Source: a virus. From it: DNA of 64,000 nucleotides. Position numbers and translations under genes: made by a program. Under the pieces are notes generated by a model. That model had not been told where the DNA came from, did not search any database, and saw only the letters and a program-made list of their open reading frames with translations. Positions 402 through 46,673 of this stretch are shown piece after piece; position 1 is the stretch's first letter, and each line of letters begins with the position of its first letter. The DNA is taken from the IMG/VR virus record IMGVR_UViG_3300044712_002679, positions 116,406 through 180,405 of that record; one strand, given 5' to 3'.

Positions 402-1793
402 ATGAAATATATTAAGCAATTCGAAACTTTGACCGATATTATATATCATTTTACTTTTGCTAATAGTCTTTTTAATATATTAAAAACAAATCAAATAAAT
501 TTAACCCCAATATTTGGCACAAATGCTGATATGGAAATAAACGCCGGAAAAATGTATACTTTATCATTAACATCATCAAGAAGTAGTGATGTTGGATATG
601 CAGCATCATTACCTAAACGTGAATTAGTTAGAATTACATTCAATGGTCGAGAATTAAATTATAACTTTAAATCTAAACGTGTAGATTATTGGCAACACCC
701 AAAAGATCCAAAGAAATATAAACATATTGAATCAGATGATCCAAAAAATATCAAAAACTTTTATAAACATATAGCTCGTCAGAATGAATTAGAAGATAGA
801 ATAGTATCAGATAAAAATACTATAACACCAGCAAACAAATATATTCAAAAAATAGAAATTTTAAATATTGATATCGAAAAAGCGGAAATTATTAAATGGT
901 ATTGTGATAAATTAAATATACCATTATATATTTATGACCAAGATAAATATTTTGATGCATCATATATCAAAATGGCATTAGATATTCAACCAAAAGAAGG
1001 TGATTTAAATACTGATAGACATAGCCAATTTTGGAATATTGAAGGTATACTAGGATTATTAACATTTAAAGACCCAGAACTAGAAAAAACAATATTTGAT
1101 GAAATTTCAGAAAAATTTAATATTGATGTTGAATCAATTAAAAAGAAAAATGATGAAATTAAAGAAAAGAATGCATATTACTTAAATAGTGGTGATTTTT
1201 ATATTGAAGATAAAGCCCATGCAATTTCTGCTGATATTCATAATTTAAAAAGATCAACTAATGAATTATTTAGATTTATTATTCACAAATTTGCATTGGA
1301 TATGAAAAAGAATAATGCAAAAACCATCAAAGAATATATTAACTATAAAGTGTGGAAAGGTAAAAAAACGCAAAAAGATTTCAATAAAGAACTTAATAAT
1401 AAAATTCAAAAATTGATTGATAAAACATATTCAAATGAATTAAAAGAAAAAAATAATTATTCATATTATGATGAAAATGGGGATTATCACAATAATATAT
1501 TTGAATATAAACCAATTAAAATTATTCTTGATGATTACGTATCAAAAATTAAAAAATATTGTTCTGATTATATTTTAAACAATGGTGATATGTTTAAATA
1601 TAGTTATATGTTAAGTTCAAGTGAATTAAAAAATGTAACTATCGGTATAGTTAACAAATTGAAAGACACCATATCAAATTTAGAACATATTGAAGTCGAT
1701 GATATTTTACCTATAATTCAAAAAATAATTTGGGAAATTGATAATATATATTATAATGAAATTAAATCAATTCAAGAAGAATTTTATAATTAA
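402..1793 (+). CDS. hypothetical protein (463 aa)
   Basis: long uninterrupted ORF with non-repetitive composition; no motif recognised. Confidence 0.55.
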   Translation: MKYIKQFETLTDIIYHFTFANSLFNILKTNQINLTPIFGTNADMEINAGKMYTLSLTSSRSSDVGYAASLPKRELVRITFNGRELNYNFKSKRVDYWQHPKDPKKYKHIESDDPKNIKNFYKHIARQNELEDRIVSDKNTITPANKYIQKIEILNIDIEKAEIIKWYCDKLNIPLYIYDQDKYFDASYIKMALDIQPKEGDLNTDRHSQFWNIEGILGLLTFKDPELEKTIFDEISEKFNIDVESIKKKNDEIKEKNAYYLNSGDFYIEDKAHAISADIHNLKRSTNELFRFIIHKFALDMKKNNAKTIKEYINYKVWKGKKTQKDFNKELNNKIQKLIDKTYSNELKEKNNYSYYDENGDYHNNIFEYKPIKIILDDYVSKIKKYCSDYILNNGDMFKYSYMLSSSELKNVTIGIVNKLKDTISNLEHIEVDDILPIIQKIIWEIDNIYYNEIKSIQEEFYN

Positions 1794-3186: not shown

Positions 3187-4569
3187 TTATATCGAACTTA
3201 TTTGATTGAATTTTTCTAATGCTATTTCCAAATTACCGAAGAATAGTTTTAATTTTTGATCGTTTTCTCTTAACATAATATGAATAATATTTTTTAATCC
3301 ATTATGTTCAAATAGTGTTTTTTCTAATAAATCTAAATCAAATGTCACAATGGCTTTATCAATATTCTTTTGAATTCTAAATGTATTCATAAATTTAATT
3401 TTATCTAAAATCTTTCTATGTCCATTGAAAAAATTATTAGCTTTTTCTAAAATATATTTAGGTGATAATTTTTTATCTTCACCTAAGTGATATGCCTTAC
3501 ACATCAATGCTATTTGTTCCAAATAAAAAATTAAAGATTCTGCATCATCTGACAATTCACCTTTCTTTTCAATATATTCTTTGATATTACTTAAATCACC
3601 ATCCAATTTAACAAATAAATTAAAATCTATTTTAATATTTTTTCTCGATACTATTGTAAGTGGTAAATTTTTTCCACCATAACTTAAAAATTTTTTAACA
3701 ACATCTAAGTATTCTTTTACTTCTTTTTCATCTTTCTTAATATTATAACCATCACAATATAAATAATTATTTCCTAACGAAAAAATTGGAGTGTAACTAA
3801 CATTGTTTATCAATTTTTTTTGAAAAAAATGAAACAATAAATCATCACCCCTATGATGTTCATCCGATCTAGCTATTGGTATAATATCTGATGTATTATG
3901 ATTAATCATAATATACCCGACATTATCATAATCACCCACATTTAATCCTTTACCAGAATTATTATTTAATATAATTTGAGTTTTCCAATCAGATACATTG
4001 GATATATCACCACTAATGTCTTGATATTTTTGAAGTTTTTCAGGTATTGTAAATTTTATACCCTCATTTATACCCTCATTTATACCCTCATTTACTTTGA
4101 TAAAATTATAATACCAATCTTCTAATTGAAATTCATTACTAAAATATTTAATGTTTTCAGGTTTAAAATTAACCATTTCCCGTCCTTTTATAATAATACC
4201 ATCATATCCCATTTTTTGTAATTCATCTTCAATTGTCGTATTATTAGAAAAATATCTTTTACTTTGTGGTACATTATGTTCTTTACAAAAATTATTAATC
4301 ATTACATTATATTCCCATATTTCCCAATCATTTAAAGTATTAAAAATTTTTGGTTTTTTTGGAATTGCATTAACAATAAAATATACTTTACCATATTGTT
4401 TAGCTAAATCTTTATTGGATAATGCTGCCGTGTATAATCCTCTACCTAACATAGCACCCGCATCATTTTCTAATCCAGCTTCTTTTATCCCACGAATAGT
4501 AACATTCTTTCGCTTCCACGATAAATATTCTTTCCTAGATTCATTATATTTAATAAATTCTGTAAACAT
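3187..4569 (-). CDS. hypothetical protein (460 aa) with EGIN tandem repeat
   Basis: long ORF; contains NEGINEGINEGI encoded by 12-bp DNA repeat at 4057-4092. Confidence 0.55.
   Translation of the reverse strand: MFTEFIKYNESRKEYLSWKRKNVTIRGIKEAGLENDAGAMLGRGLYTAALSNKDLAKQYGKVYFIVNAIPKKPKIFNTLNDWEIWEYNVMINNFCKEHNVPQSKRYFSNNTTIEDELQKMGYDGIIIKGREMVNFKPENIKYFSNEFQLEDWYYNFIKVNEGINEGINEGIKFTIPEKLQKYQDISGDISNVSDWKTQIILNNNSGKGLNVGDYDNVGYIMINHNTSDIIPIARSDEHHRGDDLLFHFFQKKLINNVSYTPIFSLGNNYLYCDGYNIKKDEKEVKEYLDVVKKFLSYGGKNLPLTIVSRKNIKIDFNLFVKLDGDLSNIKEYIEKKGELSDDAESLIFYLEQIALMCKAYHLGEDKKLSPKYILEKANNFFNGHRKILDKIKFMNTFRIQKNIDKAIVTFDLDLLEKTLFEHNGLKNIIHIMLRENDQKLKLFFGNLEIALEKFNQISSI
4057..4092. repeat. 12-bp tandem repeat x3 (tataccctcatt) inside CDS 3187-4569
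   Basis: three perfect copies read directly. Confidence 0.8.
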
Positions 4570-4606
4570 AGTTTTATATATTAAAATTTAAATCAAAATT
4601 TTTTCG

Positions 4607-4614
4607 TATCTTTG
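4607..4614 (+). promoter_or_regulatory. TATCTTTG promoter-like element 11 nt upstream of ATG 4626
   Basis: identical octamer to other instances. Confidence 0.5.
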
Positions 4615-4625
4615 CTAAAAAACAA

Positions 4626-4889
4626 ATGGAATATAAATATTGGAAAATTTGGTACATTTCATGTGAAGGTAATGAAAGATGGGTAGTTGCAAGAACATCT
4701 ATTGATTGGGAAGAATATCAAGTTCATGATAGAATACCTATTGGTGGTTGTGGTGATGATGTTGCAGAAATAACATCAATCGAAGAAACAAATAATGATA
4801 ATTTTTCATGGGACTTTTTTGAATCTGAAGAATATGAAATGATTGGCATTGTATTAAGAAAATTAGATAATATCCCAATAGATGTATAA
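4626..4889 (+). CDS. hypothetical small acidic protein
   Basis: 87-aa ORF with promoter-like motif; overlapping antisense ORF 4724-4957 judged spurious. Confidence 0.5.
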   Translation: MEYKYWKIWYISCEGNERWVVARTSIDWEEYQVHDRIPIGGCGDDVAEITSIEETNNDNFSWDFFESEEYEMIGIVLRKLDNIPIDV

Positions 4890-5091
4890 TCTATGTAAAG
4901 ATTGAATCTGCTAATGATAAAGGATATGAAGTTGAAAAATTTGAATTGGATTCCCACGTTTTTTATTTAATTCAAATTGGTGAAAAAGTTGATGTAAAAA
5001 TTAATTATGATAGGTATAATAATAAAACATCTGTTATGGGTATTGATGAATATTATTATCATAATTATTTAAATGACTATTGAATATTTTG

Positions 5092-5178
5092 TGTGCTAGG
5101 TGGGACTCGAACCCACGGTGAAGCTTACGCTTATCTGATTAAGAGTCAGGACCGTTCGCCAACTACGGATACTAGCAC
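5092..5178 (-). tRNA. class-II (long variable arm) tRNA with anticodon CUU and discriminator A73
   Basis: 7-bp acceptor GTGCTAG/CTAGCAC, T-arm GTGGG-TTCGAGT-CCCAC, anticodon loop CTCTTAA (U33, CUU, A37), 17-nt variable arm with AAGC/GCTT stem; 87 nt. Confidence 0.55.
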
Positions 5179-5186
5179 ATTTTTTG

Positions 5187-5258
5187 CAGGCTGACAAGGA
5201 TTCGAACCCTGATCTAGAGATTTGGAGTCACTTATGCTAACCGTTGCACCATCAACCT
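5187..5258 (-). tRNA. tRNA-Trp (CCA)
   Basis: acceptor AGGTTGA/TCAGCCT (one G-U), T-arm CAGGG-TTCGAAT-CCTTG, anticodon loop CTCCAAA; one U-U mismatch in anticodon stem. Confidence 0.65.
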
Positions 5259-5271
5259 ATTACATAACTAT

Positions 5272-5304
5272 AAAATGGCAGCAAATTCAATTTGCTGCCA
5301 TTTT
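5272..5304. other. perfect 14-bp-arm palindrome (AAAATGGCAGCAAATT-ca-AATTTGCTGCCATTTT) between two tRNA genes
   Basis: read directly; followed by T-run in the direction of tRNA transcription. Confidence 0.7.
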
Positions 5305-5307
5305 ATT

Positions 5308-5443
5308 GTGGAGAAAGAAGGATTCGAACCCCCGACACACGGCTCCCATTGCTTAGATTTTTGGTTTGCTGTGCATAATTTTTACTTTCGACAAATTACG
5401 TTTTTCTCTTTTTACGTTGCTCTACCAACTGAGCTATTTCTCC
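5308..5443 (-). tRNA. interrupted tRNA: canonical 5' acceptor/D-arm and T-arm/3' acceptor separated by ~60-nt AT-rich insert
   Basis: 5' GGAGAAA-TA-GCTCAGTTGGTAGAGC... and ...GGGGG-TTCGAAT-CCTTC-TTTCTCC-A pair perfectly as one acceptor stem; anticodon arm not resolvable. Confidence 0.5.
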
Positions 5444-5450
5444 ATTTTTT

Positions 5451-5948
5451 TTATTCAGGTAAATCCCAAATATAATACTTATCTTCTTTTTCATATATTG
5501 TATCACGAGGTTCCAAATCAATATCTTCCAAATATCCAATACAATTATGAAAATTAGCCGAATCTGTATGATTCCATCTACTGTAATCATCATGTGTTCT
5601 TTGAAAATATGTAGTCAAAAATGATTCAATATATCCATGGTGTACCAATAGTGAATTGCTTGTATAAAAACATATCTTATGACCATTAATTATAGCAAAT
5701 GAAAAATTTATGTATACTGGTAATGTTTCAGATTTAATTTTACCATTTCCGTTAATATTCAATTCTATTATATAATAAGACCACCCCCTACTTACTTCTT
5801 CCCAATTATATTTAGGATCATTGTGATAATCTTGCCACAAATTAAATCTTTCTTCACTTGTTGCTTCAACTATCCATTCTACATCTTCTAAATAAGAATT
5901 TCCTAACTTTTTGTGTAAATAATTCCTGTTGTTTAATCCTACATCCAT
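5451..5948 (-). CDS. hypothetical protein (165 aa)
   Basis: clean ORF between tRNA genes; no motif recognised. Confidence 0.5.
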   Translation of the reverse strand: MDVGLNNRNYLHKKLGNSYLEDVEWIVEATSEERFNLWQDYHNDPKYNWEEVSRGWSYYIIELNINGNGKIKSETLPVYINFSFAIINGHKICFYTSNSLLVHHGYIESFLTTYFQRTHDDYSRWNHTDSANFHNCIGYLEDIDLEPRDTIYEKEDKYYIWDLPE

Positions 5949-6011
5949 AATATCAAATTTAATGTTTGATATTTTTAGATATAAATAAATGAAAAGTTTA
6001 ATAATTTTTTG

Positions 6012-6104
6012 CGGAGAATGTCAGGCTCGAACTGACACACCAGATTACTCATCCGATGACAAGTTTTCAAAACTAGGACGATACCAATTTCGTTTTAATT
6101 CTCC
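6012..6104 (-). tRNA. tRNA-Ser (UGA)
   Basis: 93 nt, acceptor GGAGAAT/ATTCTCC + G73, anticodon loop TTTGAAA, long variable arm, T-arm GTCAG-TTCGAGC-CTGAC. Confidence 0.65.
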
Positions 6105-6108
6105 AAAG

Positions 6109-6182
6109 GGGTAAATTACAGATTCGAACTGTAACTAAGTGAACCACAATCACCCATGCTAACCATTAACACCAATTTACCC
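6109..6182 (-). tRNA. tRNA-His (GUG) with genomically encoded G-1 pairing C73
   Basis: G-1 + GGTAAAT/ATTTACC + C73, anticodon loop TTGTGGT, T-arm TACAG-TTCGAAT-CTGTA. Confidence 0.75.
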
Positions 6183-6185
6183 ATA

Positions 6186-6995
6186 TTACCAATTCATTTT
6201 TCTTCCTTTTTTCCAACCATTTAATAAATAATCATTTAAATCTTTTTTATTTATCTTGATACATTTTTTTTCATTTTCACATATTATCCAACATTTTCCA
6301 AATTGTGAATTCTTTTCACCTTTTTGGGATATTGAATTTGCTTGACCAATTTTTATTTTAGTTTCATCTGAATGTTTTCTATTAACCCAAAATGATATTA
6401 ATTCACCATTAATATATCGTTCATCATCTTTACTAACTAGCATCACCTTATCTATATTATCTTTAACTAGTACTAGTCCTTTGTGTATTGATATTAATTC
6501 ACCATTAATATATCGTTCATCAGTATTAAAAACATTAAAAATATTACCATCTTTATCTTTACATATAATTCTATTTTTTTGTATAGATATCAATTCACCA
6601 TTAATATATCGTTCATCATCTTTACTAACTTTCAAAATATTACCATCTACATCATTAACCACAATTTTATTTTGAAATATTGGTCTATATTTATCTAAAT
6701 TATTATTTATATAATACCAACCACCACTTCCACCCAAAGTTAAATTGTAATATTCTTTAGAATTAACCACATCTTCATTTACTAATTCTTTTTCTTTTTT
6801 TAACATATCTTCTTTAGATTTACAAAAATGCAATATAACTTTTTCAAAATTATCAACACCATATTTATTTATAGCATTTTTTAAATATTTACCCGACCCC
6901 ATATAATCATCAAAAATATTTTCTGTTACATGACAGCCAATATATTTTTTATTATTAATTTTATTGGTTATTTCATAAATAATATAATTTTTCAT
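6186..6995 (-). CDS. GIY-YIG homing endonuclease with C-terminal tandem ~22-aa repeats
   Basis: N-terminus KNYIIYEITNK...KYIGCHV...MGSGKYLKNAINKYG (GIY...YIG + catalytic block); start moved to internal ATG 6995 to avoid overlapping tRNA 7056-7132; repeats (ERYINGELISI) encoded by DNA repeats 6390-6665. Confidence 0.7.
   Translation of the reverse strand: MKNYIIYEITNKINNKKYIGCHVTENIFDDYMGSGKYLKNAINKYGVDNFEKVILHFCKSKEDMLKKEKELVNEDVVNSKEYYNLTLGGSGGWYYINNNLDKYRPIFQNKIVVNDVDGNILKVSKDDERYINGELISIQKNRIICKDKDGNIFNVFNTDERYINGELISIHKGLVLVKDNIDKVMLVSKDDERYINGELISFWVNRKHSDETKIKIGQANSISQKGEKNSQFGKCWIICENEKKCIKINKKDLNDYLLNGWKKGRKMNW
6390..6665. repeat. imperfect tandem DNA repeats (unit containing caccattaatatatcgttcatca) inside GIY-YIG gene
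   Basis: at least three near-identical ~35-bp blocks at ~6397, 6496, 6596. Confidence 0.65.
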
Positions 6996-7055
6996 AACTT
7001 TTTTATTTGTATATATTAAATAAAAAAGTTCGATTTTAGTTCGAATTAAATTTTT

Positions 7056-7132
7056 GGGTGAAAGACGGGGTACGATCCCGCAAAGTTCCTGGTTCACAGC
7101 CAGGCAAGTCTACCAATTCCTCTACAATCACC
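7056..7132 (-). tRNA. tRNA-His-like (anticodon GUG, G-1:C73) with A54/U58-swapped T-loop and two U-U acceptor mismatches; possibly degenerate
   Basis: anticodon arm CCTGG-CTGTGAA-CCAGG, T-arm GCGGG-ATCGTAC-CCCGT. Confidence 0.4.
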
Positions 7133-7142
7133 ATAATTATTG

Positions 7143-7214
7143 TCAACCAGATGGGATTCGAACCCACGTAAACCGTGATTCACAATCACGTCCCGAACAC
7201 CAAACACGGGTTGC
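7143..7214 (-). tRNA. tRNA-His-like (GUG) with E. coli-like T-arm GTGGG-TTCGAAT-CCCAT, G-1:A73, weak D-arm; possibly degenerate
   Basis: anticodon arm CGTGA-TTGTGAA-TCACG perfect; acceptor CAACCCG/CTGGTTG with one mismatch. Confidence 0.4.
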
Positions 7215-7222
7215 TGGAGGGG

Positions 7223-7308
7223 CGGAGAAAACAGGAATCGAACCTGCACCCCAGTTACCCGAGGAACGGTTTTCCAAACCGTTGCAGTACCATTATGCTT
7301 ACTTCTCC
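7223..7308 (-). tRNA. tRNA-Ser (GGA)
   Basis: 86 nt, acceptor GGAGAAG/TTTCTCC + G73, anticodon arm ACGGT-TTGGAAA-ACCGT, variable-arm hairpin CCTCGG/CTGGGG. Confidence 0.65.
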
Positions 7309-7535
7309 AATTTTTTAAATTTTTCTTTTAATTTTTCTTTTACTTCATCAGAAGTATAATACCATTTCATATTAATTTGCATTTCAGAAATGATAATTCC
7401 CCATTCTGCTTTTGCTGAAAATTGTGGTTTGTATTTAATTCTTTGATAAATAAATATAAATGGCACACATAAATACCAACGATATCTAATTATTCTTTCA
7501 ATTAAATTGCATTCTTGAAATCTTTTATTTTTCAT
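7299..7535 (-). CDS. hypothetical small protein (78 aa) within tRNA array
   Basis: ORF in tRNA-free gap; start assignment uncertain. Confidence 0.3.
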   Translation of the reverse strand: MKNKRFQECNLIERIIRYRWYLCVPFIFIYQRIKYKPQFSAKAEWGIIISEMQINMKWYYTSDEVKEKLKEKFKKLEK

Positions 7536-7554
7536 AATTTATACATTTTTTAGC

Positions 7555-7638
7555 GGAGAGAAAGGGGGTCGAACCCTCAAGCCGAATAAACGACCGACAG
7601 ATTAGCAATCTGCTCCAATACCATTATGGGACCTCTCC
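7555..7638 (-). tRNA. tRNA-Ser (GCU)
   Basis: acceptor GGAGAGG/TCTCTCC + G73, anticodon arm GCAGA-TTGCTAA-TCTGT, long variable arm. Confidence 0.65.
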
Positions 7639-7728
7639 AAAATCAGAATACATTTTGTGGGTTTGAACCACGTTAACAAAGTTTCAGTTTGTATTTTAAC
7701 CTTTTGTTTTTGCTGTGCGTATTCTTTG

Positions 7729-7801
7729 TGGGGTAGACTGGTTACGATCCAGTTCCTATGGATTTTCAGTCCACCGCAATGACCACATCTGCCACTACCC
7801 C
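7729..7801 (-). tRNA. tRNA-Phe (GAA) with A54/U58-swapped T-loop (ATCGTAA)
   Basis: acceptor GGGGTAG/CTACCCC + A73, anticodon arm GTGGA-CTGAAAA-TCCAT, T-arm ACTGG-ATCGTAA-CCAGT. Confidence 0.65.
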
Positions 7802-7810
7802 AATTATTTG

Positions 7811-7894
7811 CGGAGAAAAAGGGATTCGAACCCCCACACCAGTTTCCCGATTTCACTGTTTTCGAAACAGCTAACTACACCAATAGGCTTCTCC
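7811..7894 (-). tRNA. tRNA-Ser (CGA)
   Basis: acceptor GGAGAAG/TTTCTCC + G73, anticodon arm GCTGT-TTCGAAA-ACAGT, long variable arm. Confidence 0.6.
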
Positions 7895-8055
7895 AAGTTC
7901 AGAATACTTTTGTGACATCGAATCACGACAAATTTCAAGTTTGCTTTACCTTTTTTTGCTGTATGTATTCTTTTTTGTGGACTGTATCGGATTTGCACCG
8001 ATTGTTAGCATAATTACTTTTTTGGTTTGCTATGCTTCAAAAAGCAACAGCCCAT

Positions 8056-8676
8056 TTATTTTTTATATTTATTTTTATTTTTTCCACCATGTGTATCTAA
8101 TGTTGCATTACAATTTGGACATAATATTCTTAAATTTGTTAATCTATGATCATTATTTATCCCATTTATATGATCTAATATTAAACTTATATGTTTTCCT
8201 TTCCAATTTTCATCTTGTCCACACATTTCACACTTTCTTTTTTTTAATCCATCTTCATATAATCTTTCTTTCAAATGTGTTGTATTAAAATTGGAATTTT
8301 CAACTAATATTAATGATAAATCTATTTTTTTATTTAAATTTTTTATTTGAAATTCATATTTAATAAAATGATCAATATTTATATCATATTTTTTAATATA
8401 TTTTTTTAATGTGTTATAAGAAGAACCAAAATTATTAATATCTAATTTAATTAAACATTCTTTATATGTTTTTGAATTTTTAACAATTTCAATTAAATAA
8501 TCTTTTTCATATTTATTTTTTACACTATAATGTGCTTCTATTTTTAATTTTTTTCGTCTTTCCTCAATTGATCTTATTGATCTATCTAATTTAGTTAAAC
8601 AATATTTTAAACCATAAATAGGATAATTTTCAATCAATATATCATCTTCATTTTTTGTCCATTTTTTATTTTTCAT
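8056..8676 (-). CDS. HNH homing endonuclease
   Basis: C-terminal CEMCGQDENWKGKHISLILDHINGINNDHRLTNLRILCPNCN (Cys pairs + DH...N...H...N HNH core); located inside tRNA array. Confidence 0.75.
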   Translation of the reverse strand: MKNKKWTKNEDDILIENYPIYGLKYCLTKLDRSIRSIEERRKKLKIEAHYSVKNKYEKDYLIEIVKNSKTYKECLIKLDINNFGSSYNTLKKYIKKYDINIDHFIKYEFQIKNLNKKIDLSLILVENSNFNTTHLKERLYEDGLKKRKCEMCGQDENWKGKHISLILDHINGINNDHRLTNLRILCPNCNATLDTHGGKNKNKYKK

Positions 8677-8767
8677 TTTAAGTTATTTTTTGTAGTATAT
8701 ATAAATATTTTAAACTACAAAAAATCACTATGAACTATAAAAATTCAAAAAAATAGTTATGGGAATG

Positions 8768-8848
8768 CACGACAGAGAGGATTCGAACCCCTGAACCTTT
8801 CGGTATAGTTTTGGAGACTATCAGCTTTAACCACTTGCATACTGCCGT
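8768..8848 (-). tRNA. tRNA-Trp-like (CCA) with 12-nt extended variable region; D-stem poorly formed
   Basis: acceptor ACGGCAG/CTGTCGT, anticodon arm ATAGT-CTCCAAA-ACTAT perfect, T-arm AGGGG-TTCGAAT-CCTCT. Confidence 0.45.
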
Positions 8849-8867
8849 ATATTTTTGCGGAGGCGAA

Positions 8868-8951
8868 GGGAATCGAACCCCCAAATCATTACTGATTTAC
8901 TTGTTTTCAAGACAAGCCCCTCGTCCATTCGGACCACCTCCAAATACAATT
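8868..8951 (-). tRNA. tRNA-Ser (UGA), second copy
   Basis: acceptor GGAGGTG/CGCCTCC + G73, anticodon arm CTTGT-CTTGAAA-ACAAG, variable hairpin AAATCA/TGATTT. Confidence 0.65.
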
Positions 8952-9001
8952 TAAAAGATTGTTCGTTATTTTTTGCTGTATGTATTCTTTGTGGGGTGAG
9001 G

Positions 9002-9077
9002 TGGATTCGAACCACCATCCCTGGATTTTCAGTCCAGTGCGAAACTGACCAACTGCGCTACCACCCCAATAAGTATA
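9002..9077 (-). tRNA. tRNA-Phe (GAA), second copy, with enlarged D region (extra hairpin CAGT-TTCGC-ACTG)
   Basis: acceptor GGGGTGG/TCACCCC + A73, anticodon arm CTGGA-CTGAAAA-TCCAG, T-arm GGTGG-TTCGAAT-CCACC. Confidence 0.55.
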
Positions 9078-9094
9078 ACGTATGTGCGTCTGGT

Positions 9095-9167
9095 GGGTCA
9101 CGATCCCACGACTCCATCATTAAAAGTGATGTACTCTACCAACTGAGTTACAGACGCAAAAATATTC
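9095..9167 (-). tRNA. tRNA-Lys (UUU), canonical class I, A54/U58-swapped T-loop (ATCGTGA)
   Basis: acceptor GCGTCTG/CAGACGC + A73, D-arm ACTC-AGTTGGTA-GAGT, anticodon arm CATCA-CTTTTAA-TGATG. Confidence 0.75.
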
Positions 9168-9196
9168 AATATGTCAATGAACTTTAAAAAAAATTG

Positions 9197-9282
9197 TGAT
9201 CCCGATGGGACTCGAACCCATGTACAACTTTCGTATCCCACATTAAAAGTGTGGTGCCTCGTTCCAACTCGGCCACGGAATC
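9197..9282 (-). tRNA. class-II (long variable arm) tRNA with anticodon UUU and discriminator A73
   Basis: acceptor GATTCCG/CGGGATC (one G-U), 3-bp D-stem GCC/GGC, anticodon arm CCACA-CTTTTAA-TGTGG perfect, 16-nt variable arm, T-arm ATGGG-TTCGAGT-CCCAT. Confidence 0.55.
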
Positions 9283-9302
9283 AATAAATAAAGAACGTAA
9301 CA

Positions 9303-9345
9303 AAAAAAAATCCGAACTTTTTACGGTTCGGATTTTTCTGTTTTA
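9303..9345. terminator. bidirectional intrinsic terminator (ATCCGAAC...GTTCGGAT hairpin between A9 and T-run) bounding the tRNA array
   Basis: 8-bp inverted repeat read directly. Confidence 0.65.
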
Positions 9346-9583
9346 TCTTAATTAAAAATCAATTTATTTTGACTTATTAAGTAAGCATACGAAATCCGAA
9401 CCTGATCTATGTGACCAAAAGCTCTTAAAGGATTTACTATGTTTACTTACGTTTCTCATGATTTCTATTTTTTACTTTGTTTTACTTATATAGAAAATTA
9501 ATTCTATTTTGTTTATTTTTTCTTTTATATATTAACGTAAAAAAGTCATTTTTTTCTATTTTTGATTTTTGTGACTTTTCACG

Positions 9584-12060: not shown

Positions 12061-12282
12061 TTATTTATCACTATTAAGAAATCTACGTGGATTCCAAATC
12101 ATTTCATTTATCACCATTGCTAAAATTTCAACTTCTTTCAGCGTAATATCATCAGGTAAGAATTGATGGAGTAAATTATTTATTTCTGGCTTTAATCTAT
12201 CCATATGTTCTTGTTTTTCTTCGATTGTAATATCGGGTTTTTCACACAATAATTCTTGTGTCATTCTAATTGCTTCTTGCAT
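12061..12282 (-). CDS. hypothetical small protein
   Basis: 73-aa ORF in operon context. Confidence 0.4.
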   Translation of the reverse strand: MQEAIRMTQELLCEKPDITIEEKQEHMDRLKPEINNLLHQFLPDDITLKEVEILAMVINEMIWNPRRFLNSDK

Positions 12283-12295
12283 AATTTTATCTGTT

Positions 12296-12763
12296 TTATT
12301 TTTTCATTCGATTTGATGTCTCCCCATCAAAATTATCTTGTTTTGCCTTATGTGGAAACATTGCATAAAATATTTTCCAAACTTTTTTTGATCGAGTTTT
12401 CTTTGGGTATCTGATTGAATTTTTGTTAGACCCACCACTACCAACATAGACACCTTTATTGTCTCTTGTTTCTTTTATACTATTTGTATCTAATGTTTTA
12501 TTTTTTTTATCAAATTCTTCCAAATAAATATTATGTAATTCTGTCATATCAATGTTAGTATCCATTACAATTGTTCGTATTTCTTTTAAAGCCAAATATC
12601 TTTCTTTCACTATACCCCTACAATGCTTATCTTCGTTTATGTTTGTTTCTAAATATGCTATTTGTTTATTTAAATGTTCGATATAAAGATTTTTATCTAC
12701 ATAATTACCACCATGTCCATCGTGTTTGTGAATAAGTGTTCTTAATTTTCTATATTTTTCCAT
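12296..12763 (-). CDS. hypothetical protein (155 aa)
   Basis: operon context. Confidence 0.45.
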   Translation of the reverse strand: MEKYRKLRTLIHKHDGHGGNYVDKNLYIEHLNKQIAYLETNINEDKHCRGIVKERYLALKEIRTIVMDTNIDMTELHNIYLEEFDKKNKTLDTNSIKETRDNKGVYVGSGGSNKNSIRYPKKTRSKKVWKIFYAMFPHKAKQDNFDGETSNRMKK

Positions 12764-12764
12764 A

Positions 12765-13322
12765 TTAATCTGTATAACTTAATACTGCAATTTTTATATT
12801 GTTGGTGTAGATACTATCTACTCGAATAAATAAGGCATCCCCATTTTCATATTTTTCATATAATTCATCATAATTGTCTTCTAATGATCCTATTATTTCT
12901 TTAATTTCTAAATAATAAAAATTAAAATCATATTCTTTTTCTAAATATTCATATTCTTTTTCTAATTTTTCTATCCATTTAGCTTGTTCATTAATATTTT
13001 TAAATGAATTCAATTTTGGTTTATATGAATTATCATCATATGCAATATAATCATAATCAACGATTAACATCAAATCTAATAATTCTTTGGCTTTTTCAGA
13101 CAATTTAGTCGATGTTATATGATCATCATAATCAACCAACAGTGAATCTATTTTACCGTCAATTTCTATATTTTCTCTTAGCCAATTATCCAAATGATGT
13201 TCTAAATTATCATATGTAAAAAAATTAGTATCAAAATTTTTCTTAAATTCTTCTATTAATTCTTGTCGTACTTCTAAGTATCTTTTTATTAATTCATTAT
13301 CTTTATTTACTATTGGTCTCAT
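12765..13322 (-). CDS. hypothetical acidic protein (185 aa)
   Basis: operon context; 2-nt spacing to neighbour. Confidence 0.45.
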   Translation of the reverse strand: MRPIVNKDNELIKRYLEVRQELIEEFKKNFDTNFFTYDNLEHHLDNWLRENIEIDGKIDSLLVDYDDHITSTKLSEKAKELLDLMLIVDYDYIAYDDNSYKPKLNSFKNINEQAKWIEKLEKEYEYLEKEYDFNFYYLEIKEIIGSLEDNYDELYEKYENGDALFIRVDSIYTNNIKIAVLSYTD

Positions 13323-14144: not shown

Positions 14145-14632
14145 ATTGGTAATATGTGAAATTCTTTTAAAAATATATAATTTACAATATATTCCCAATT
14201 AGGGAATTCTTTAGAACCAAATTTTATAAATTCACCTTTAAAATCTAATTGTCCATGCATATCAGTATCATCAATTAGATAATCTCCAATATGTAAAGAT
14301 TTATCACATGACATATCAAGTCTTTCTAATGTTTCAAATCCTAAATGTTCAAGAACCCAATATGCTTTTTCTGTATAACTATTTAGATTATATATTGATG
14401 GTCGAGTTAAAATACGAACTTCAAAATATTCTTCAAGTTTTTTAAATGCTTTAATTGCACCTGGGATTTCTTCCAATTTAATAAAAAATCCAAACTGTGA
14501 TTGTGGATATTTTTGTGTTGGACATTTTTCCAAATCATTTAAATATGCCTTTGCAAAATTGCAAAGAACCCCATCTAAATCCACATATATTATTTTATTT
14601 TTTTTCATTTTTAAAATTTTTAAATTTTTCAT
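14141..14632 (-). CDS. HAD-family 5'(3')-deoxyribonucleotidase
   Basis: N-terminal IIYVDLDGVLCNF (DxDGVL motif I of HAD deoxyribonucleotidases). Confidence 0.65.
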   Translation of the reverse strand: MKNLKILKMKKNKIIYVDLDGVLCNFAKAYLNDLEKCPTQKYPQSQFGFFIKLEEIPGAIKAFKKLEEYFEVRILTRPSIYNLNSYTEKAYWVLEHLGFETLERLDMSCDKSLHIGDYLIDDTDMHGQLDFKGEFIKFGSKEFPNWEYIVNYIFLKEFHILPI

Positions 14633-15389
14633 ATTTTCTATTCAAATATATATCAGACAAATTTTCTTCATAAATATAATTTAAAAAATTAAATGCATCT
14701 CTATACAAATATAATCTATTTGTTGAATAATGTTTTAAAATTTTTGTTTTTTTTGTTATTATTTTATTTTTTTCTAAAAAATCTTGAATTTGTTCTAAGC
14801 ATTCTTTAGTTGATATTAAATTTACTTTTATTCTATTATTATCTTTACCATATATTGTTAATGATCCATCACCATCAAACATACCAGCTATAAAATTCAA
14901 ATAATATTTTTCATCTATGTTTTTAATAATGAAATTATCACTTTTTTCAACATTTATATATTTTTGTAATTTTTTTGTGAATAAATTATTTGTAATAGAT
15001 ATTACATATGAAGTATATTCTTTATTGTTTCTTTTGTCAATAGTTGTATTTTTAACAATTTTATGTTCAGATTCTAATGACTTTTTAAATTTTATTAATA
15101 TTTCTTCATCTTTAGATACTAATCTAACTTTATTATTTTTTAAACAACCATCTGCAACAATAAAACCTAACCAATACGCTTTTTCTTTCGTGTCAATATT
15201 ATCAAAATATGATATATTGAATTTTAATTTGCTTTCATTTAACCTATTTCTATTTGTATTAATATTATTGTTTCTTAATATATTACTTACTGTTACTTGT
15301 GATATATTTAATTTTTTTGATATTTCAATTTGTTTATTTGTTAACGATAAATTAATTATTTCTGTTATTAAATCTTTATTTATTTTCAT
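14595..15389 (-). CDS. LAGLIDADG homing endonuclease (two-motif, monomeric type)
   Basis: AYWLGFIVADGCL and NFIAGMFDGDGSL motifs; N-terminal HTH-like segment. Confidence 0.7.
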   Translation of the reverse strand: MKINKDLITEIINLSLTNKQIEISKKLNISQVTVSNILRNNNINTNRNRLNESKLKFNISYFDNIDTKEKAYWLGFIVADGCLKNNKVRLVSKDEEILIKFKKSLESEHKIVKNTTIDKRNNKEYTSYVISITNNLFTKKLQKYINVEKSDNFIIKNIDEKYYLNFIAGMFDGDGSLTIYGKDNNRIKVNLISTKECLEQIQDFLEKNKIITKKTKILKHYSTNRLYLYRDAFNFLNYIYEENLSDIYLNRKYEKFKNFKNEKK

Positions 15390-15441: not shown

Positions 15442-15882
15442 TTATATATTAATATTAAAATCTCGTTTTATTCTAATTTTTTCTTCTCGATCAAAAATAG
15501 AATTTTTTTTATCATACAGTTTTTTTCCTTTGGCAATACAAATTGTTACTTTACAAAGACCTTGTTTATTAACAAACATATTCAAAGGAATTATTGTTAA
15601 TCCTTTTTCTTTTATTTTGACTTTAAGTTTTTTTAATTCTTTTTTTGTTAATAATAATTTTTTTGGTCGTTTTGGATCATGATTAAATTGATTTGCAAAT
15701 TCATATTCATCAATATGACAATTTACTAAATATAAATCGTTTCCTGTAAACGAACAAAAACTTTCAGATAATGATGCTTTACCCTTTCTTATTGATTTTA
15801 TTTCTGAACCCACAAGCTGAATCCCCGCTACGATTTCATCTTCTATAAAAAATTCGTAGTATGCTTTTTTATTTTTTATCAT
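15442..15882 (-). CDS. smpB: SsrA-binding protein SmpB
   Basis: aligns along full length with E. coli SmpB by eye ([24 protein letters not shown] / [40 protein letters not shown] / KVKIGVAKGKKQHDKR). Confidence 0.85.
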   Translation of the reverse strand: [146 protein letters not shown]

Positions 15883-28620: not shown

Positions 28621-29154
28621 ATGAAGCAAAAAGAATCAGAAAACAGAATTAATTATTCAATTAAAGATTTAACCGTAAGGTTAGTTGGTGATAATGTTAC
28701 AAATGGTGTAATTGACACTAAAAGTGCAATAAAATTGGCTAGAGATATGGAATTAGATTTGGTCGAAATTTCGGGTCCAGTTAACGGAAATCCATCAATT
28801 TGCAAAATAGTTGACTATCAAAAATATCTTTACGACAAAAAGAAAAAAGATAAAGATCAAAAGAAAAAGCAAAAATTAAGTCAGTCAGAAGTCAAAGAAA
28901 TTAGAATGACCCCGCATACTGATGAACACGATTTTAATTTTAAATTAAATCATGCTAAAAACTTCTTAACCAATAACGATAAAGTATTAGTTTCAGTATT
29001 CTTTAAGGGTAGAGAAATATCATATAAAGAACAAGGTCAAATTGTTTTATTAAAATTTGCAAAGGAATTGGAAGATATTGGCATACCTGAGTATTTACCT
29101 AAACTAGAAGGAAAAAAAATGCTAATGATGATTAAACCTAAACCAAAAAAATAA
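28621..29154 (+). CDS. infC: translation initiation factor IF-3
   Basis: aligns by eye with E. coli IF3 across N- and C-domains (NRIN..VRL.G; DLVEISP.A.PPVCRI.DY.K.LY; KKKQK...VKEI..P..DEHD...KL.....FL; GRE). Confidence 0.85.
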   Translation: MKQKESENRINYSIKDLTVRLVGDNVTNGVIDTKSAIKLARDMELDLVEISGPVNGNPSICKIVDYQKYLYDKKKKDKDQKKKQKLSQSEVKEIRMTPHTDEHDFNFKLNHAKNFLTNNDKVLVSVFFKGREISYKEQGQIVLLKFAKELEDIGIPEYLPKLEGKKMLMMIKPKPKK

Positions 29155-32896: not shown

Positions 32897-33355
32897 TTAA
32901 ATTAATGATTGAAATTTTACATATTTTTTAGGACACAAATAAAAATTTCGATAACTTTTTTCTTTTTTATCATACAATTCTTTAAAAAACCAATTTTTAT
33001 ATGTACTACTATATATTATTAAACACTTGGTTTTAGAAGCATTTAATATTATATAGCAATATAATGTCCTTATATTTCTTTTATCTATTTTATATTTTTC
33101 ATCAACAATTATATCTTGGTATGGTACATCATCAAATGTCATAAAATCTATTTCTTTCCATTGTTTGACTTCAACCCGCATTGATATTTTTATATCACCA
33201 TCATCAGTATGTTCATATCTCGATTCTTCATCTGGTGTTACAGTATATGGTAAAATCTCACTATCAAAACCCAATTTTGTCATCCAATTATTAACAACAA
33301 TTGTTGCTTTTTTAGCATCATTTAAATTTTGCGTAAAAATGTTTCTGGGTTTCAT
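32897..33355 (-). CDS. hypothetical protein (152 aa)
   Basis: 4-nt overlap with polB fragment stop. Confidence 0.45.
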   Translation of the reverse strand: MKPRNIFTQNLNDAKKATIVVNNWMTKLGFDSEILPYTVTPDEESRYEHTDDGDIKISMRVEVKQWKEIDFMTFDDVPYQDIIVDEKYKIDKRNIRTLYCYIILNASKTKCLIIYSSTYKNWFFKELYDKKEKSYRNFYLCPKKYVKFQSLI

Positions 33356-34722
33356 ATTGAAAATATTGAATTTAATACTGACAATCTTTTATTTATTGTT
33401 GGTAATCCTATTGGTTCGAGAAAACGATTCACAATATGTAAGAATGTTAAATCAAATTGTTCATCAAAATCAATTTTAACACCTTCTTTTTCTACAATTT
33501 CATATGGATGCATACTTCTTTGAAAAGCAAAAACATTATTTTTAGGATGATTACAATAATAATATTTTATTCTTCCACCTCTTATATTATCATATTTTAC
33601 TTTATATTCCGAATTTTTGTTTAATAAATAATTGTGTAATGCTGCAGCTTTAACACCAAAATGCGCACCTTTAATACATACAACATCGGTTACATCATCT
33701 ATACACTTAATTGAATAATTACTACAACTAGTGGTCATACTAATATCTTCGATATCTGCCATTATAAATTCTCGCTTCATATCTTTAACCAATTTTAAAA
33801 CTTTTCTAATATCAATATTATTAGGATTTCCAAATATATACCTTAAAAAATCATAAATATTTTCTCTAACAAATGGTGGTGTAGAAGATTTAACAATCTC
33901 AACACCCTTTGGATAAAAATATGTCAAATTTTCATAAAAAATTCCATCTTCCCAAACAACATTGTTTATGTAATTCTTTTTTTGAATATGTAATGCTGAA
34001 CGATTAATTGTTTCAAGTTCAAATACATGAAGATTTTTAACACCATATCTTGATGCATATTCAACAAGCCAACTGTTATATAATTTTTCAACAAATATTC
34101 TATTAGCATGTAATATCCAATCCAATTCTTCACCCATATAATTAGATGAATCAATCATTGGTTTAAAAGAAATATATAATGAATCGGTATCACCATATAT
34201 GATTATTGGCTTTTCTTTTGGAATTTGTTCTATATGTGAAAAGTCACCAATTATTCTTTTAAATAAAATATTATAACTTTTAAATTCTTTCTTATCTTCA
34301 ATTAAATCGAATTTATTTATATTTAACTTTTTTAATAACCCATCATCACCATCTAATGAATTGTGTGGATAATTAATATTCATTCCATTAATATCCAACA
34401 AGAAATATTTACCTTCTTTTTCGGCTATATATTCTAAACCTAATCTTTTGTGGGTTTCGATATCCAAATGCCACTCATTATAAAAATATTGTTCAATTTT
34501 TTTCAACATAAAATTTATAACATCACGACCATGTGCAGTAATAGCATTTGCTATATGTGAATTTGATATTACAAAATGCGGATTTGCGAATGCGCCGTAT
34601 GTTCCGTTAATCACGAGCTTAAGTGCTAATTGCATCGCTTTCGCTCTATCATATTCAGCTTTTGTTTCGTCTATTCGACTTTTTAATTCCGCAATTTTTT
34701 GTCTTTTTTCATCAGGTGTCAT
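33352..34722 (-). CDS. family-B DNA polymerase, C-terminal half only (motif B to thumb)
   Basis: KLVINGTYGAF (KxxxNSxYG motif B), IIIYGDTDSLY (motif C), IQKKNYI (KKRY-like); ORF begins ~40 aa before motif B; no exonuclease or motif A region. Confidence 0.75.
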   Translation of the reverse strand: MTPDEKRQKIAELKSRIDETKAEYDRAKAMQLALKLVINGTYGAFANPHFVISNSHIANAITAHGRDVINFMLKKIEQYFYNEWHLDIETHKRLGLEYIAEKEGKYFLLDINGMNINYPHNSLDGDDGLLKKLNINKFDLIEDKKEFKSYNILFKRIIGDFSHIEQIPKEKPIIIYGDTDSLYISFKPMIDSSNYMGEELDWILHANRIFVEKLYNSWLVEYASRYGVKNLHVFELETINRSALHIQKKNYINNVVWEDGIFYENLTYFYPKGVEIVKSSTPPFVRENIYDFLRYIFGNPNNIDIRKVLKLVKDMKREFIMADIEDISMTTSCSNYSIKCIDDVTDVVCIKGAHFGVKAAALHNYLLNKNSEYKVKYDNIRGGRIKYYYCNHPKNNVFAFQRSMHPYEIVEKEGVKIDFDEQFDLTFLHIVNRFLEPIGLPTINKRLSVLNSIFSI

Positions 34723-40488: not shown

Positions 40489-41808
40489 ATGACAAAAACA
40501 GAAGAATTTATCCAAAAAGCGAAACTTGTTCACGGGGATAAATATAATTATTCTAAAGTCGAATATATTAATAATCACACTAAAGTTACTATTATTTGTC
40601 CAAAGCATGGTGAATTTAAACAACAACCAGCAAATCATTTAAATAATATGGGTTGTCCAAAATGTGTTGGCAATATAAAATTAACAACAACAGATTTTTT
40701 ATCAAAAGCAAAAGAAATTCATGGGGATAAATATGATTATTCAAAAGTTGAATATGTCGGAATATTTAATCACGTGAAAATAATTTGTCCAATTCATGGG
40801 GAATTTGAACAAACACCAAGACAACATCTTAAAGGTCGTGGGTGTTATAAATGTGGTGGTACACAAAAATATACACAAAATGAATATGTTATAAAAGCAA
40901 AGGAACTTCACGGGGATAAATATGATTATTCAAAAGTTAATTATTTGGGTGGTAGAAAAGATATAATTATAATTTGTCCTAAACACGGTGAATTTAAACA
41001 AAAAGCTGGTCAACATATACATGGTTCAGGTTGTCCAAATTGTGCTGGATTAGGGTTTATATTTCTATCATTTGAAGAAGCAAAAATTTTTGTTAAAAAT
41101 CTTAATTTACAAACACAAAATGAATGGCAAAAATATTGTAAATCGGGAAATAAACCTGATAATATACCAATAGCACCCGAAATTGTTTATAAAAAAGTTT
41201 GGATTAACTGGGGTGATTGGTTGGGTACATTTAAAATTTCAAATCAAAAAAAAGAATATTGGACATTTGAAGAAGCTAGAATATTTGTTAGAAATCTTAA
41301 TTTAAAATCAATAACAGAATGGAAAAGATATTGTAAAAATGAAAATAAACCTAGCAATATTCCAAATGATCCATACGGAACGTATAATAAATATGGTTGG
41401 TTAAATTGGGGTGATTTTTTAGGCTCATTTACATTAGCACCAAAAGATAGACAATATTTATCATTTGAAGAAGCAAGAAATTTTGTTAGAACACTTAATT
41501 TAAATTCAAAAGAAAAATGGGTAAATTATTGTAAATCGGGAAGTAAGCCTAACAATATTCCAAATGATCCATATAGTTATTATAAAGATGATGGTTGGAT
41601 TGATATGGGGGATTGGTTGGGTACATTTACAATTGCCCCACGATATAAACAATTAAATTATCTTTCAGAAGAAGAATTCATACAATTTATTAAAGATACA
41701 TTTCCAAATTTATATGGTGCTGAACTTCATAAAGCATATGAAGCTTGGTGGGATGAAAATAAACCAGAATATTTACCAAAGGATGTTGCTAAATATTATA
41801 ATAAATAA
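40489..41808 (+). CDS. repeat-family protein 1: 4 N-terminal Zn-ribbon modules + 5 x ~57-aa KSGNKP.NIP/WGDWLG repeats + conserved C-terminal tail
   Basis: modules HGDKYDYSKVEY..(K)V.IICP.HGEF.Q.P..HL.G.GCP.C x4; repeats (FEEAR.FVR.LNL.S...W..YCKSGNKP.NIP.DP...Y...GW..WGDWLGTF); tail LSEEEFIQFIKDTFPN...AYEAWWDENKPEYLPK. Confidence 0.7.
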   Translation: MTKTEEFIQKAKLVHGDKYNYSKVEYINNHTKVTIICPKHGEFKQQPANHLNNMGCPKCVGNIKLTTTDFLSKAKEIHGDKYDYSKVEYVGIFNHVKIICPIHGEFEQTPRQHLKGRGCYKCGGTQKYTQNEYVIKAKELHGDKYDYSKVNYLGGRKDIIIICPKHGEFKQKAGQHIHGSGCPNCAGLGFIFLSFEEAKIFVKNLNLQTQNEWQKYCKSGNKPDNIPIAPEIVYKKVWINWGDWLGTFKISNQKKEYWTFEEARIFVRNLNLKSITEWKRYCKNENKPSNIPNDPYGTYNKYGWLNWGDFLGSFTLAPKDRQYLSFEEARNFVRTLNLNSKEKWVNYCKSGSKPNNIPNDPYSYYKDDGWIDMGDWLGTFTIAPRYKQLNYLSEEEFIQFIKDTFPNLYGAELHKAYEAWWDENKPEYLPKDVAKYYNK

Positions 41809-41811
41809 TTT

Positions 41812-43515: not shown

Positions 43516-43518
43516 TTT

Positions 43519-44823: not shown

Positions 44824-44877
44824 AATAAAAATTTTTTAAAAAACTTACAATAAATTTGCTTTTTCGTAATAAAAACT

Positions 44878-44885
44878 TATATTTG
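44878..44885 (+). promoter_or_regulatory. TATATTTG promoter-like element upstream of 44914
   Basis: TAnnTTTG. Confidence 0.4.
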
Positions 44886-44913
44886 CACAATGTTTAATTA
44901 AAAATATAAGTTT

Positions 44914-45546
44914 ATGAAAAAGTTTTTATCATTTGAAGAAGCAAAGGCATTTGCACAAAGTTTAAATTTAAAATCCTTAAAGGATTGGAAAGATTACTGT
45001 AAATCGGGTAACAAACCTAATAATATTCCAAATGATCCGTACAGTGCATATAAAAACAACAATTGGATTTCGTGGGGTGATTGGTTGGGTACATTTAGGG
45101 TTTCGAATAGGAACAAACAGTTCATATCTTTTGAAGAAGCAAAAGAAATTATCAAAAAATTAAATTTGAAAAACCGAAAAGATTATGAAAAATATCAATC
45201 AGATATGATTGAAAAACTTAATAATGCGACTGTACCAACAAATCCAAATGTTGTATATAGTAGTTCTTGGAAAAGTTGGAATGATTTTTTGGGTATAGAA
45301 CCAAATGAATTTCTTCCATTTGAAGAAGCAAGGAATTTTGTGCGATCACTTAATTTAAAAAGTGTTCGGGATTGGGAAAAATACAGAAAACAAAAACCTG
45401 ATAATATTCCATCTTTACCAAGTAGTTATTATAAAGAAAAATGGATAAATTGGGGGGATTGGTTAGGAACAAACAATGTTGCTACTAAATACGTATCATT
45501 CGAAGATGCAAAAAATATTGTTCGTAAATTAAAAGATTCAAAATGA
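44914..45546 (+). CDS. repeat-family protein 4 (short; ~3.5 repeats, no Zn ribbon, no tail)
   Basis: same repeat unit. Confidence 0.65.
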   Translation: MKKFLSFEEAKAFAQSLNLKSLKDWKDYCKSGNKPNNIPNDPYSAYKNNNWISWGDWLGTFRVSNRNKQFISFEEAKEIIKKLNLKNRKDYEKYQSDMIEKLNNATVPTNPNVVYSSSWKSWNDFLGIEPNEFLPFEEARNFVRSLNLKSVRDWEKYRKQKPDNIPSLPSSYYKEKWINWGDWLGTNNVATKYVSFEDAKNIVRKLKDSK

Positions 45547-46670: not shown

Positions 46671-46673
46671 AAA

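Follow-up and report, generated by a model that had tools for sequence, protein, structure and literature searches.

The window analysed here is a 64,000-nt stretch of the IMG/VR virus record IMGVR_UViG_3300044712_002679 (positions 116,406-180,405). On its minus strand, a tRNA-like gene of 135 nt at 5309-5443 combines a tRNA body with an inserted module and reads, 5' to 3', GGAGAAA-TA-GCTC-AGTTGGTA-GAGC-A-ACG ... CGT-GTGTC-GGGGG-TTCGAAT-CCTTC-TTTCTCC-A. The 5' part (5415-5443) comprises the acceptor strand GGAGAAA, U8 and A9, the D-arm, A26 and the ACG of anticodon-stem positions 27-29. The 3' part (5309-5352) provides the remainder of the anticodon arm (GC, the loop AATGGGA and GCCGT), followed by the variable loop GTGTC, the T-arm GGGGG-TTCGAAT-CCTTC, the acceptor strand TTTCTCC and the discriminator A. 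The first-pass annotation, made from the letters alone, had taken these pieces for the acceptor stem, D-arm and T-arm of one split tRNA, and rightly so. Indeed, the Rfam tRNA model (RF00005) matches the gene from end to end (model positions 1-71) with 45.5 bits for a gathering score of 29, far beyond chance (E=1.7e-6 over the whole window), and its alignment places a 73-nt insertion inside the anticodon arm. A contiguous 5-bp anticodon stem closing a 7-nt loop with U33 is absent from the gene. Default ARAGORN makes no call at 5309-5443 though it lists 14 other tRNAs in the 5.1-9.3 kb region; with introns allowed, it proposes a tRNA-Leu(aag), which was rejected as a poor and implausible model.

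The insert itself (5353-5414, minus strand) had been described as about 60 nt of AT-rich sequence. It is AT-rich and exactly 62 nt long, but far from being featureless filler it is a conserved module. An A-rich linker, TAAAAAGAGAAAAA (5401-5414), precedes a hairpin (5374-5400), the conserved single-stranded motif ACAGCAA (5366-5372) and a tail, ACCAAAAATCTAA (5353-5365), linker and tail being delimited as in the family anatomy. In the hairpin, which is the TAATTT...AAATTA structure already noticed at first reading, strand S, CGTAATTT (5393-5400), pairs with strand S', AAATTATG (5374-5381), across the 11-nt loop GTCGAAAGTAA (5382-5392). As across the family, this loop starts with GU and the motif lies 9 nt past it. 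Folding stability of the insert is ordinary relative to shuffled sequences (z=-0.11); its distinguishing mark is conservation rather than folding energy. With 5353-5414 deleted, ACG meets GC and the sequence ACGGC-AAUGGGA-GCCGU results, in which five Watson-Crick pairs enclose a 7-nt loop. The normal 17-nt anticodon arm that could not be found initially is thus present around the insertion point (29/30, within the anticodon stem), though with A33 where tRNAs have U33.

Alignment with related phages, proposed initially as a check, shows that the insert is kept in four diverged orthologues (window, L001/L331, L332 and L333), in which the exons are identical and the insert is near-identical. In the IMG/VR contig L001, all four substitutions of a near-identical gene fall within the insert or the loop. 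In L332, 24 nt of the hairpin are deleted between two CGTAA repeats, and a 5-bp helix can still be formed. The anticodon loops of the four orthologues (AAUGGGA, AAUGAAA, AUUGAAA and AUGUAAA) are the most variable and fastest-changing part of the gene, and such drift next to unchanging exons speaks against a decoding tRNA as well as against simple decay. Near-identical phages were not found by megablast of window positions 4000-9500 against GenBank phages. Over its first 25 nt, the split tRNA does not differ from a normal bacterial tRNA-Phe(GAA) in L330, and the best explanation for the tRNA body is derivation from a tRNA-Phe-like gene.

Of the three options first offered for the locus, namely a tRNA with an unusual intron, a tRNA-derived structured RNA and a disrupted pseudogene, the last is disfavoured by the four orthologues. 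It is quite improbable that a decaying tRNA gene was hit by a small selfish hairpin repeat, mobile in phage tRNA arrays, and now yields a functionless product. Such an origin would suit the window loop lacking U33 and the hairpin deletion in L332, yet the exons stay identical where the neighbouring tRNA-Trp differs at 3/72 positions and the spacers cannot be aligned. The module is present in many copies (1061 occurrences of RCAGCAA across the viral loci, 290-347 for control heptamers) and homing endonuclease genes crowd the tRNA arrays bearing it, but compensatory changes maintain its helix across the family, and the strict same-strand adjacency to one protein family described below is not expected of junk. 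A GCAGCAA hairpin at 5272-5304, in the window and missing from L001, would also suit a mobile repeat. This perfect 16-bp palindromic hairpin, AAAATGGCAGCAAATT/GAATTTGCTGCCATTTT, lies between the split tRNA and tRNA-Trp and shows GCAGCAA on both strands; since L001 lacks the stretch of ~47 nt that holds it, the hairpin may be mobile and akin to the module.

Several tRNAs of the window array have non-standard lengths (77-82 nt), and ARAGORN reports a 79-nt tRNA-His (7142-7220, minus strand) overlapping a 90-nt tRNA-Ser (7220-7309, minus strand) by one base. Two others (5091-5178 and 9196-9282, both minus strand) combine a long variable arm and a D-arm of the Ser/Leu type with the Lys anticodons CUU and UUU. 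To our knowledge, a long-arm tRNA with a Lys anticodon would be unexpected in a bacterium; these two could reflect recoding, mischarging or another tRNA mimic. Three homing endonuclease genes, all on the minus strand, lie in or beside the array, encoding a GIY-YIG (SegE-like) enzyme (6186-7097), an HNH enzyme (8056-8676) and a LAGLIDADG enzyme (14595-15389). A similar placement is that of segB in the T4 tRNA cluster. The window also encodes a full-length IF3 (28621-29154, plus strand), a PIN protein, SmpB and a PolB fragment, a 456-aa ORF (33352-34722, minus strand) whose match to family B DNA polymerase is confined to the C-terminal part and suggests a split or interrupted polB. Six consecutive paralogous ORFs with Pfam INT_rpt (integrase repeat unit) occupy 40489-47426 (plus strand).

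The SmpB gene (15442-15882, minus strand; Pfam E=1e-52) lies 10 kb from the split tRNA, and the motif ACAGCAA contains GCA, a common tmRNA resume codon, from which a miniature tmRNA-like rescue RNA working with the phage SmpB might be imagined. Pair 3:70 is A3-U70 instead of the G3:U70 of tmRNA, however, the D-arm is canonical rather than reduced to a degenerate D-loop, and no frame starting from the motif ends consistently in a stop codon (window, L040 and L026). Neither ARAGORN nor Rfam calls a tmRNA at the locus, no tmRNA gene was found in the window, and the family is linked to Ro60-like genes rather than to SmpB. As a conserved tag ORF is absent, a tmRNA is effectively refuted, in agreement with the first-pass annotation, whose suggested connection with smpB gains no support.

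The module family and its layouts

A search of viral contigs for the same D-arm and T-loop 60-90 nt apart returned 90 loci. About 60 of them show perfect 7-bp acceptor pairing across the gap, which indicates that interrupted tRNA genes are common in viral contigs. One class consists of tRNA-Tyr genes with introns at position 37/38, some of them in giant-virus MAG contigs, and another is marked by the motif GGCTA...GTTACTTC. Inserts of the latter class, 50-61 nt long, sit in phage tRNA anticodon stems (L030, L042/L069, L014/L054/L079, L077, L044, L047), and their excision likewise restores canonical arms, e.g. Asn GUU. The class to which the window belongs is laid out as an A-rich linker, a hairpin of ~7 bp, 0-3 nt, RCAGCAA and a tail, and its insertion point is always within the 5' strand of the anticodon stem. 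A further search, for ACAGCAA with a T-loop after it, added another >120 loci with many different tRNA bodies.

Family geometry is strict around the motif, with CAGCAA invariant, a loop-to-motif distance fixed at 9 nt and a loop beginning with GU. The helix, with the consensus AAGUCAU/GUGACUU, shows changes on both sides at all 7 pairs and 96.8% of cells paired, an observed value that 0/500 shuffles reach, for sequences that had been picked for possessing a hairpin. A covariance model (R1) built from 18 other phages, with the window left out, matches window positions 5360-5404 with 25 bits (E=0.0033), its sole significant match in 64 kb. The window copy is nevertheless atypical for the family in its 11-nt loop and in the absence of pairing between linker and tail.

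Besides its position within the anticodon stem, the module occurs in other layouts. In tRNA-like RNAs of roughly 90 nt (89-95 nt; L064/L009, L169, L119), it replaces the whole anticodon arm. In units of the form S'-NN-ACAGCAA-X-S-(U)AGU, the two helix strands stand far apart, and X is nothing, a complete tRNA or a circularly permuted tRNA (~50 distinct cases); at some loci, modules flank complete tRNAs. The permuted genes begin with the 3' half, often with CCA after the discriminator and a few further nucleotides, and continue with the 5' half, the module strands being at the ends. Canonical arms are restored when these halves are joined, and one permuted unit (L122) has the arm of the window gene itself, ACGGC-...-GCCGU-GUGUC.

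The window contains three such modules without a tRNA body, filling the spacers upstream of the three tRNA-Ser genes and all on the minus strand. The first, AGAATAC-AT-ACAGCAA-X-GTATTCT-GAAC (7901-7971), lies just upstream of tRNA-Ser(cga), and its X contains a T-arm-like hairpin. The second, AGAATAC-GC-ACAGCAA-X-GTATTCT-GATT (7645-7725), lies between tRNA-Phe and tRNA-Ser(gct), and its X contains an anticodon-arm-like and a T-arm-like hairpin. The third, AGAATAC-AT-ACAGCAA-X-TGTATTT with an X of 24 nt (8942-8988), lies between tRNA-Phe and tRNA-Ser(tga). The module thus occurs in layouts where splicing cannot yield a tRNA. Because standard tRNA finders miss genes bearing it, inventories of phage tRNAs and non-coding RNAs are undercounted.

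Elsewhere, one phage tRNA array with several ACAGCAA modules (L173) also holds ROOL (7558-8229), GOLLD (12269-12780) and drum (2541-2667) RNAs. Three other identities of the module were considered and rejected. A DNA element of the IS200/IS605 or integron attC type is at odds with an unconserved target sequence and with helices that vary by compensatory changes; a CRISPR repeat or RNA anti-CRISPR, in which a hairpin with a handle of ~9 nt is similar, was dropped as no arrays of true repeats were found; and a hairpin promoter would leave the complementary distal strand unexplained.

A Ro60-like protein gene beside the module in related phages

ORFs of all viral loci were clustered and their co-occurrence with module RNAs was counted. 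The most widespread cluster (median 484 aa) carries Pfam DUF2828, VWA_2 and DUF7788 and corresponds to PHROG 850, 'RNA-binding protein'. A DUF2828+vWA gene of this kind is found in 28/46 loci with a tRNA-embedded module, on the same strand in 59/59 pairs and at a median distance of 325 nt, and in 14/35 loci with a permuted module, always on the same strand and at a median distance of 672 nt, compared with 27/253 loci having neither module type. Its enrichment near modules is significant (p=2e-7), and RNA and gene share the strand in 73/73 pairs when embedded and permuted modules are taken together.

Over its full length, an AlphaFold model of the DUF2828+vWA protein (pLDDT 78.7) resembles Ro60/TROVE structures, the best matches being Ro60 of the Thermus phage phiLo (9kop, 9l5y) and Deinococcus Rsr (2nvo), with E values of 1e-6 to 3e-5 and TM scores of 0.43-0.60. 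This Ro60-like family is very large, as >7,900 of 8,000 scored candidate proteins reach E<=1e-5, and we know of no RNA partner previously assigned to it. A Ro60-like ORF was found neither in the 64-kb window nor in L001 and L331-L333, which are short related contigs, so that the gene linkage, including a Ro60 homologue within ~4 kb on the same strand, is shown for relatives only.

Splicing and the known intron types

The module may alternatively belong to a new protein-dependent tRNA intron or circularisation signal, in which the helix and ACAGCAA would act as a processing signal, a functional counterpart of the archaeal and eukaryal bulge-helix-bulge; this is the main rival of the reading preferred below, and a less likely one. 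The 62 nt would be excised and the halves ligated into a 73-nt tRNA, whereas in the permuted genes the signal would circularise the precursor, whose acceptor end RNase P and RNase Z would then open, and the Ro60-like protein could belong to the machinery. Support comes from the restored arms. Excision of one segment restores a canonical arm (5 bp, U33 and R37) in 22/49 long tRNA-like candidates, where shuffles predict 0.4, the restored tRNAs including Lys, Thr, Asn, Ile, Val, Asp, Phe and Pro, and five Watson-Crick pairs are restored in the window; the restored window loop has A33, however, and its anticodon differs among the orthologues. The anticodons of module tRNAs are duplicated in the neighbouring tRNA sets in 5/49 cases, about chance level, and they are not more complementary to the neighbouring standard tRNAs than expected by chance. 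In a module-tRNA lineage with the acceptor GGCAAGG, L006, L008, L011 and L055 have the loop AUUACAA (Val UAC), and L022 and L085 have a 9-nt loop, AUUCAAAAY; the latter loop contains UCA, an anticodon that would read UGA.

The constant insertion in the 5' strand of the anticodon stem also speaks for splicing, as does a pairing of linker with tail beyond that of mismatched partners (p=1.5e-4), but the distance from splice site to motif is variable (linker 2-20 nt, tail 3-20 nt). The permuted genes, with halves that join into canonical arms and a CCA often encoded after the discriminator, mirror the permuted tRNA genes of Cyanidioschyzon; against this, the module is also found without any anticodon arm and as empty units. 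Some module loci hold kinase-phosphatase-Rnl1 ligase genes, yet across the clustered viral loci Rnl1-kinase-phosphatase, kinase, phosphatase and HNH clusters show no enrichment near modules, and neither RtcB, Rnl nor EndA genes were found among the scanned window proteins. That the helix with ACAGCAA is a genuine signal for RNA cleavage and ligation, a phage or bacterial counterpart of the bulge-helix-bulge, appears unlikely. If it were, bacteriophages would have protein-dependent tRNA splicing as well as circularly permuted tRNA genes that are functional, the first of both in bacterial viruses, and the Ro60-like ring would be the processing platform, perhaps together with phage Rnl1/PNK enzymes. 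Excision by RNase P and RNase Z with the insert arm as a minihelix was rejected, the linker-tail pairing geometry being too inconsistent.

The intron option proposed at first keeps support from the canonical arms restored in many relatives, although the insert corresponds to no known intron type. In archaea and eukaryotes, the bulge-helix-bulge resembles the module in that one motif serves introns, permuted tRNA genes and stems flanking whole RNAs. The module differs from it in lacking a 3-nt bulge, 4-bp helix and 3-nt bulge, in junctions of variable geometry with the conserved sequence away from them, and in bacterial hosts in which no splicing endonuclease was seen. tRNA genes of bacteria and phages are also interrupted in their anticodon region by group I introns. 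These introns measure at least ~200 nt, lie in the anticodon loop and contain a catalytic core; the window insert has 62 nt, and no Rfam Intron_gpI match appears at any E value up to 10. When the locus and a typical family member were scanned permissively against Rfam, tRNA was the only family returned; twister, pistol, hatchet, hammerhead, HDV and group I all gave no match. Of the covariance models named for checking by the first-pass annotation, that of tRNA matched and those of tmRNA and the group I intron did not. In a many-tRNA phage locus (L149), a sub-threshold group I match lies at 430-625 (minus strand; 34.9 bits, gathering score 50).

The sole literature report of phage tRNA introns concerns the 'enigmatic' ones of Lak megaphages (Devoto et al. 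2019, PMC6784885). There also, tRNA genes are interrupted in huge phages of ~26% GC, are missed by bacterial tRNA finders and have an intron mechanism that is not known (PMC6784885). Their inserts, however, measure 79-114 nt, lie in the anticodon loop after 36/37, hold a mini tRNA-like acceptor and T-arm and lack ACAGCAA (PMC6784885), whereas the window insert interrupts the stem at 29/30 and contains no T-arm. The Lak tRNA introns are a different class.

A Y-RNA-type reading and its known counterparts

The explanation preferred here, with a probability of roughly one half, is a Y-RNA-like RNA built on a non-permuted tRNA scaffold, the module being the candidate binding site of a Ro60-like protein. 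Since the conserved module adjoins a Ro60-like gene in related phages, a tRNA-shaped molecule of the Y-RNA type is likelier than a classical intron or a dead gene. The locus would encode a chimeric RNA, a complete tRNA body with an arm protruding from the anticodon stem and made of a 7-8 bp helix, two nucleotides and single-stranded ACAGCAA. From the family and its gene linkage in relatives, we infer that this arm is bound by protein, most likely as the predicted binding site of the phage Ro60-like (TROVE + vWA) protein. The RNA would then be a phage relative of the bacterial tRNA mimic YrlA rather than a tRNA awaiting splicing. By analogy with Ro60-Y RNA particles, its tRNA-like domain may tether the Ro60-like ring to tRNA-binding or RNA-decay/repair enzymes or gate it towards them.

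Counted in favour of the Y-RNA-type molecule are the conservation of the module, its layouts beyond splicing, the permuted YrlA-like genes, the Ro60-like linkage, the structure match, the precedent of known systems and the drift of the anticodon loop; among the initial options, the tRNA-derived structured RNA thereby fits best, on account of the conserved module, the non-spliceable layouts and the Ro60-like gene. Counted against it are the lack of a Ro60-like ORF in the window, the intron-like restorations in 22/49 relatives and the atypical window copy with its long loop and unpaired linker and tail. The module also lacks the GNCGAA/CGAA motif of known Y RNAs, and Rfam YrlA (RF02553) has no match at the window locus. 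A Y-RNA-type function and splicing are compatible, because the Ro60-like particle could itself be the processing platform.

Among small phage RNAs, rnaC and rnaD of T4 are comparable as stable RNAs of unknown function encoded together with phage tRNAs. Whereas rnaC has a T-arm-like 3' end, both lack the complete tRNA body of the window RNA, and the RCAGCAA module was not seen in either.

As described by Chen et al. 2014 (PMC4201824), Y RNAs mimic tRNA, and their genes lie no more than 4 kb away from Ro60 and share its strand, also in 22 phages. YrlA of M. smegmatis is cleaved by RNase P and receives CCA, and the short YrlB RNAs have a T-arm only (PMC4201824). The phage Ro60 of phiLo binds Y-like RNAs (Yrl1/2) encoded upstream of its gene and recruits the host PNPase (PMC12135203), and a ROT/TROVE protein with a tRNA-like partner has been noted in jumbo phages (PMC7824862). 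The module family shares with these systems a tRNA-like domain (acceptor, D-arm and T-arm, all present in the window RNA) joined to a helix, partner binding being predicted for the family, as well as short companion RNAs with a T-arm only. In relatives, its genes likewise adjoin, on the same strand, the gene of a TROVE+vWA-type protein, which is of the DUF2828 branch whereas the Y RNA partner Ro60 is Pfam TROVE.

The arrangement of the parts differs. The window RNA keeps the normal tRNA order and ends at the acceptor stem, its predicted protein-binding helix being a hairpin closed by a loop and set into the anticodon stem next to an anticodon hairpin that is kept, whereas in YrlA the permuted order leaves paired 5' and 3' ends as the Ro-binding stem. 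The motif is also distinct, RCAGCAA with a GUC/GAC helix in the module family versus GNCGAA(N)G in Y RNAs, in which an Rfam score of at least 69 bits is expected. The YrlA-like relatives reverse the window arrangement: the ~50 circularly permuted tRNA-like genes with module strands at their ends have the YrlA architecture, and they match Rfam YrlA exactly at the predicted places, with 32-41 bits for a threshold of 69 (E 9e-6 to 3e-3 in a 57-kb scan, 1.2e-7 in a 231-nt scan). The signature of a 7-bp helix, two nucleotides and RCAGCAA would assign to DUF2828-vWA proteins an RNA partner and open binding, structure and function to direct tests. Since the same RNA is built in permuted, non-permuted, anticodon-less and stand-alone forms, the family is informative on the evolution of YrlA-type tRNA mimics from real tRNA genes.
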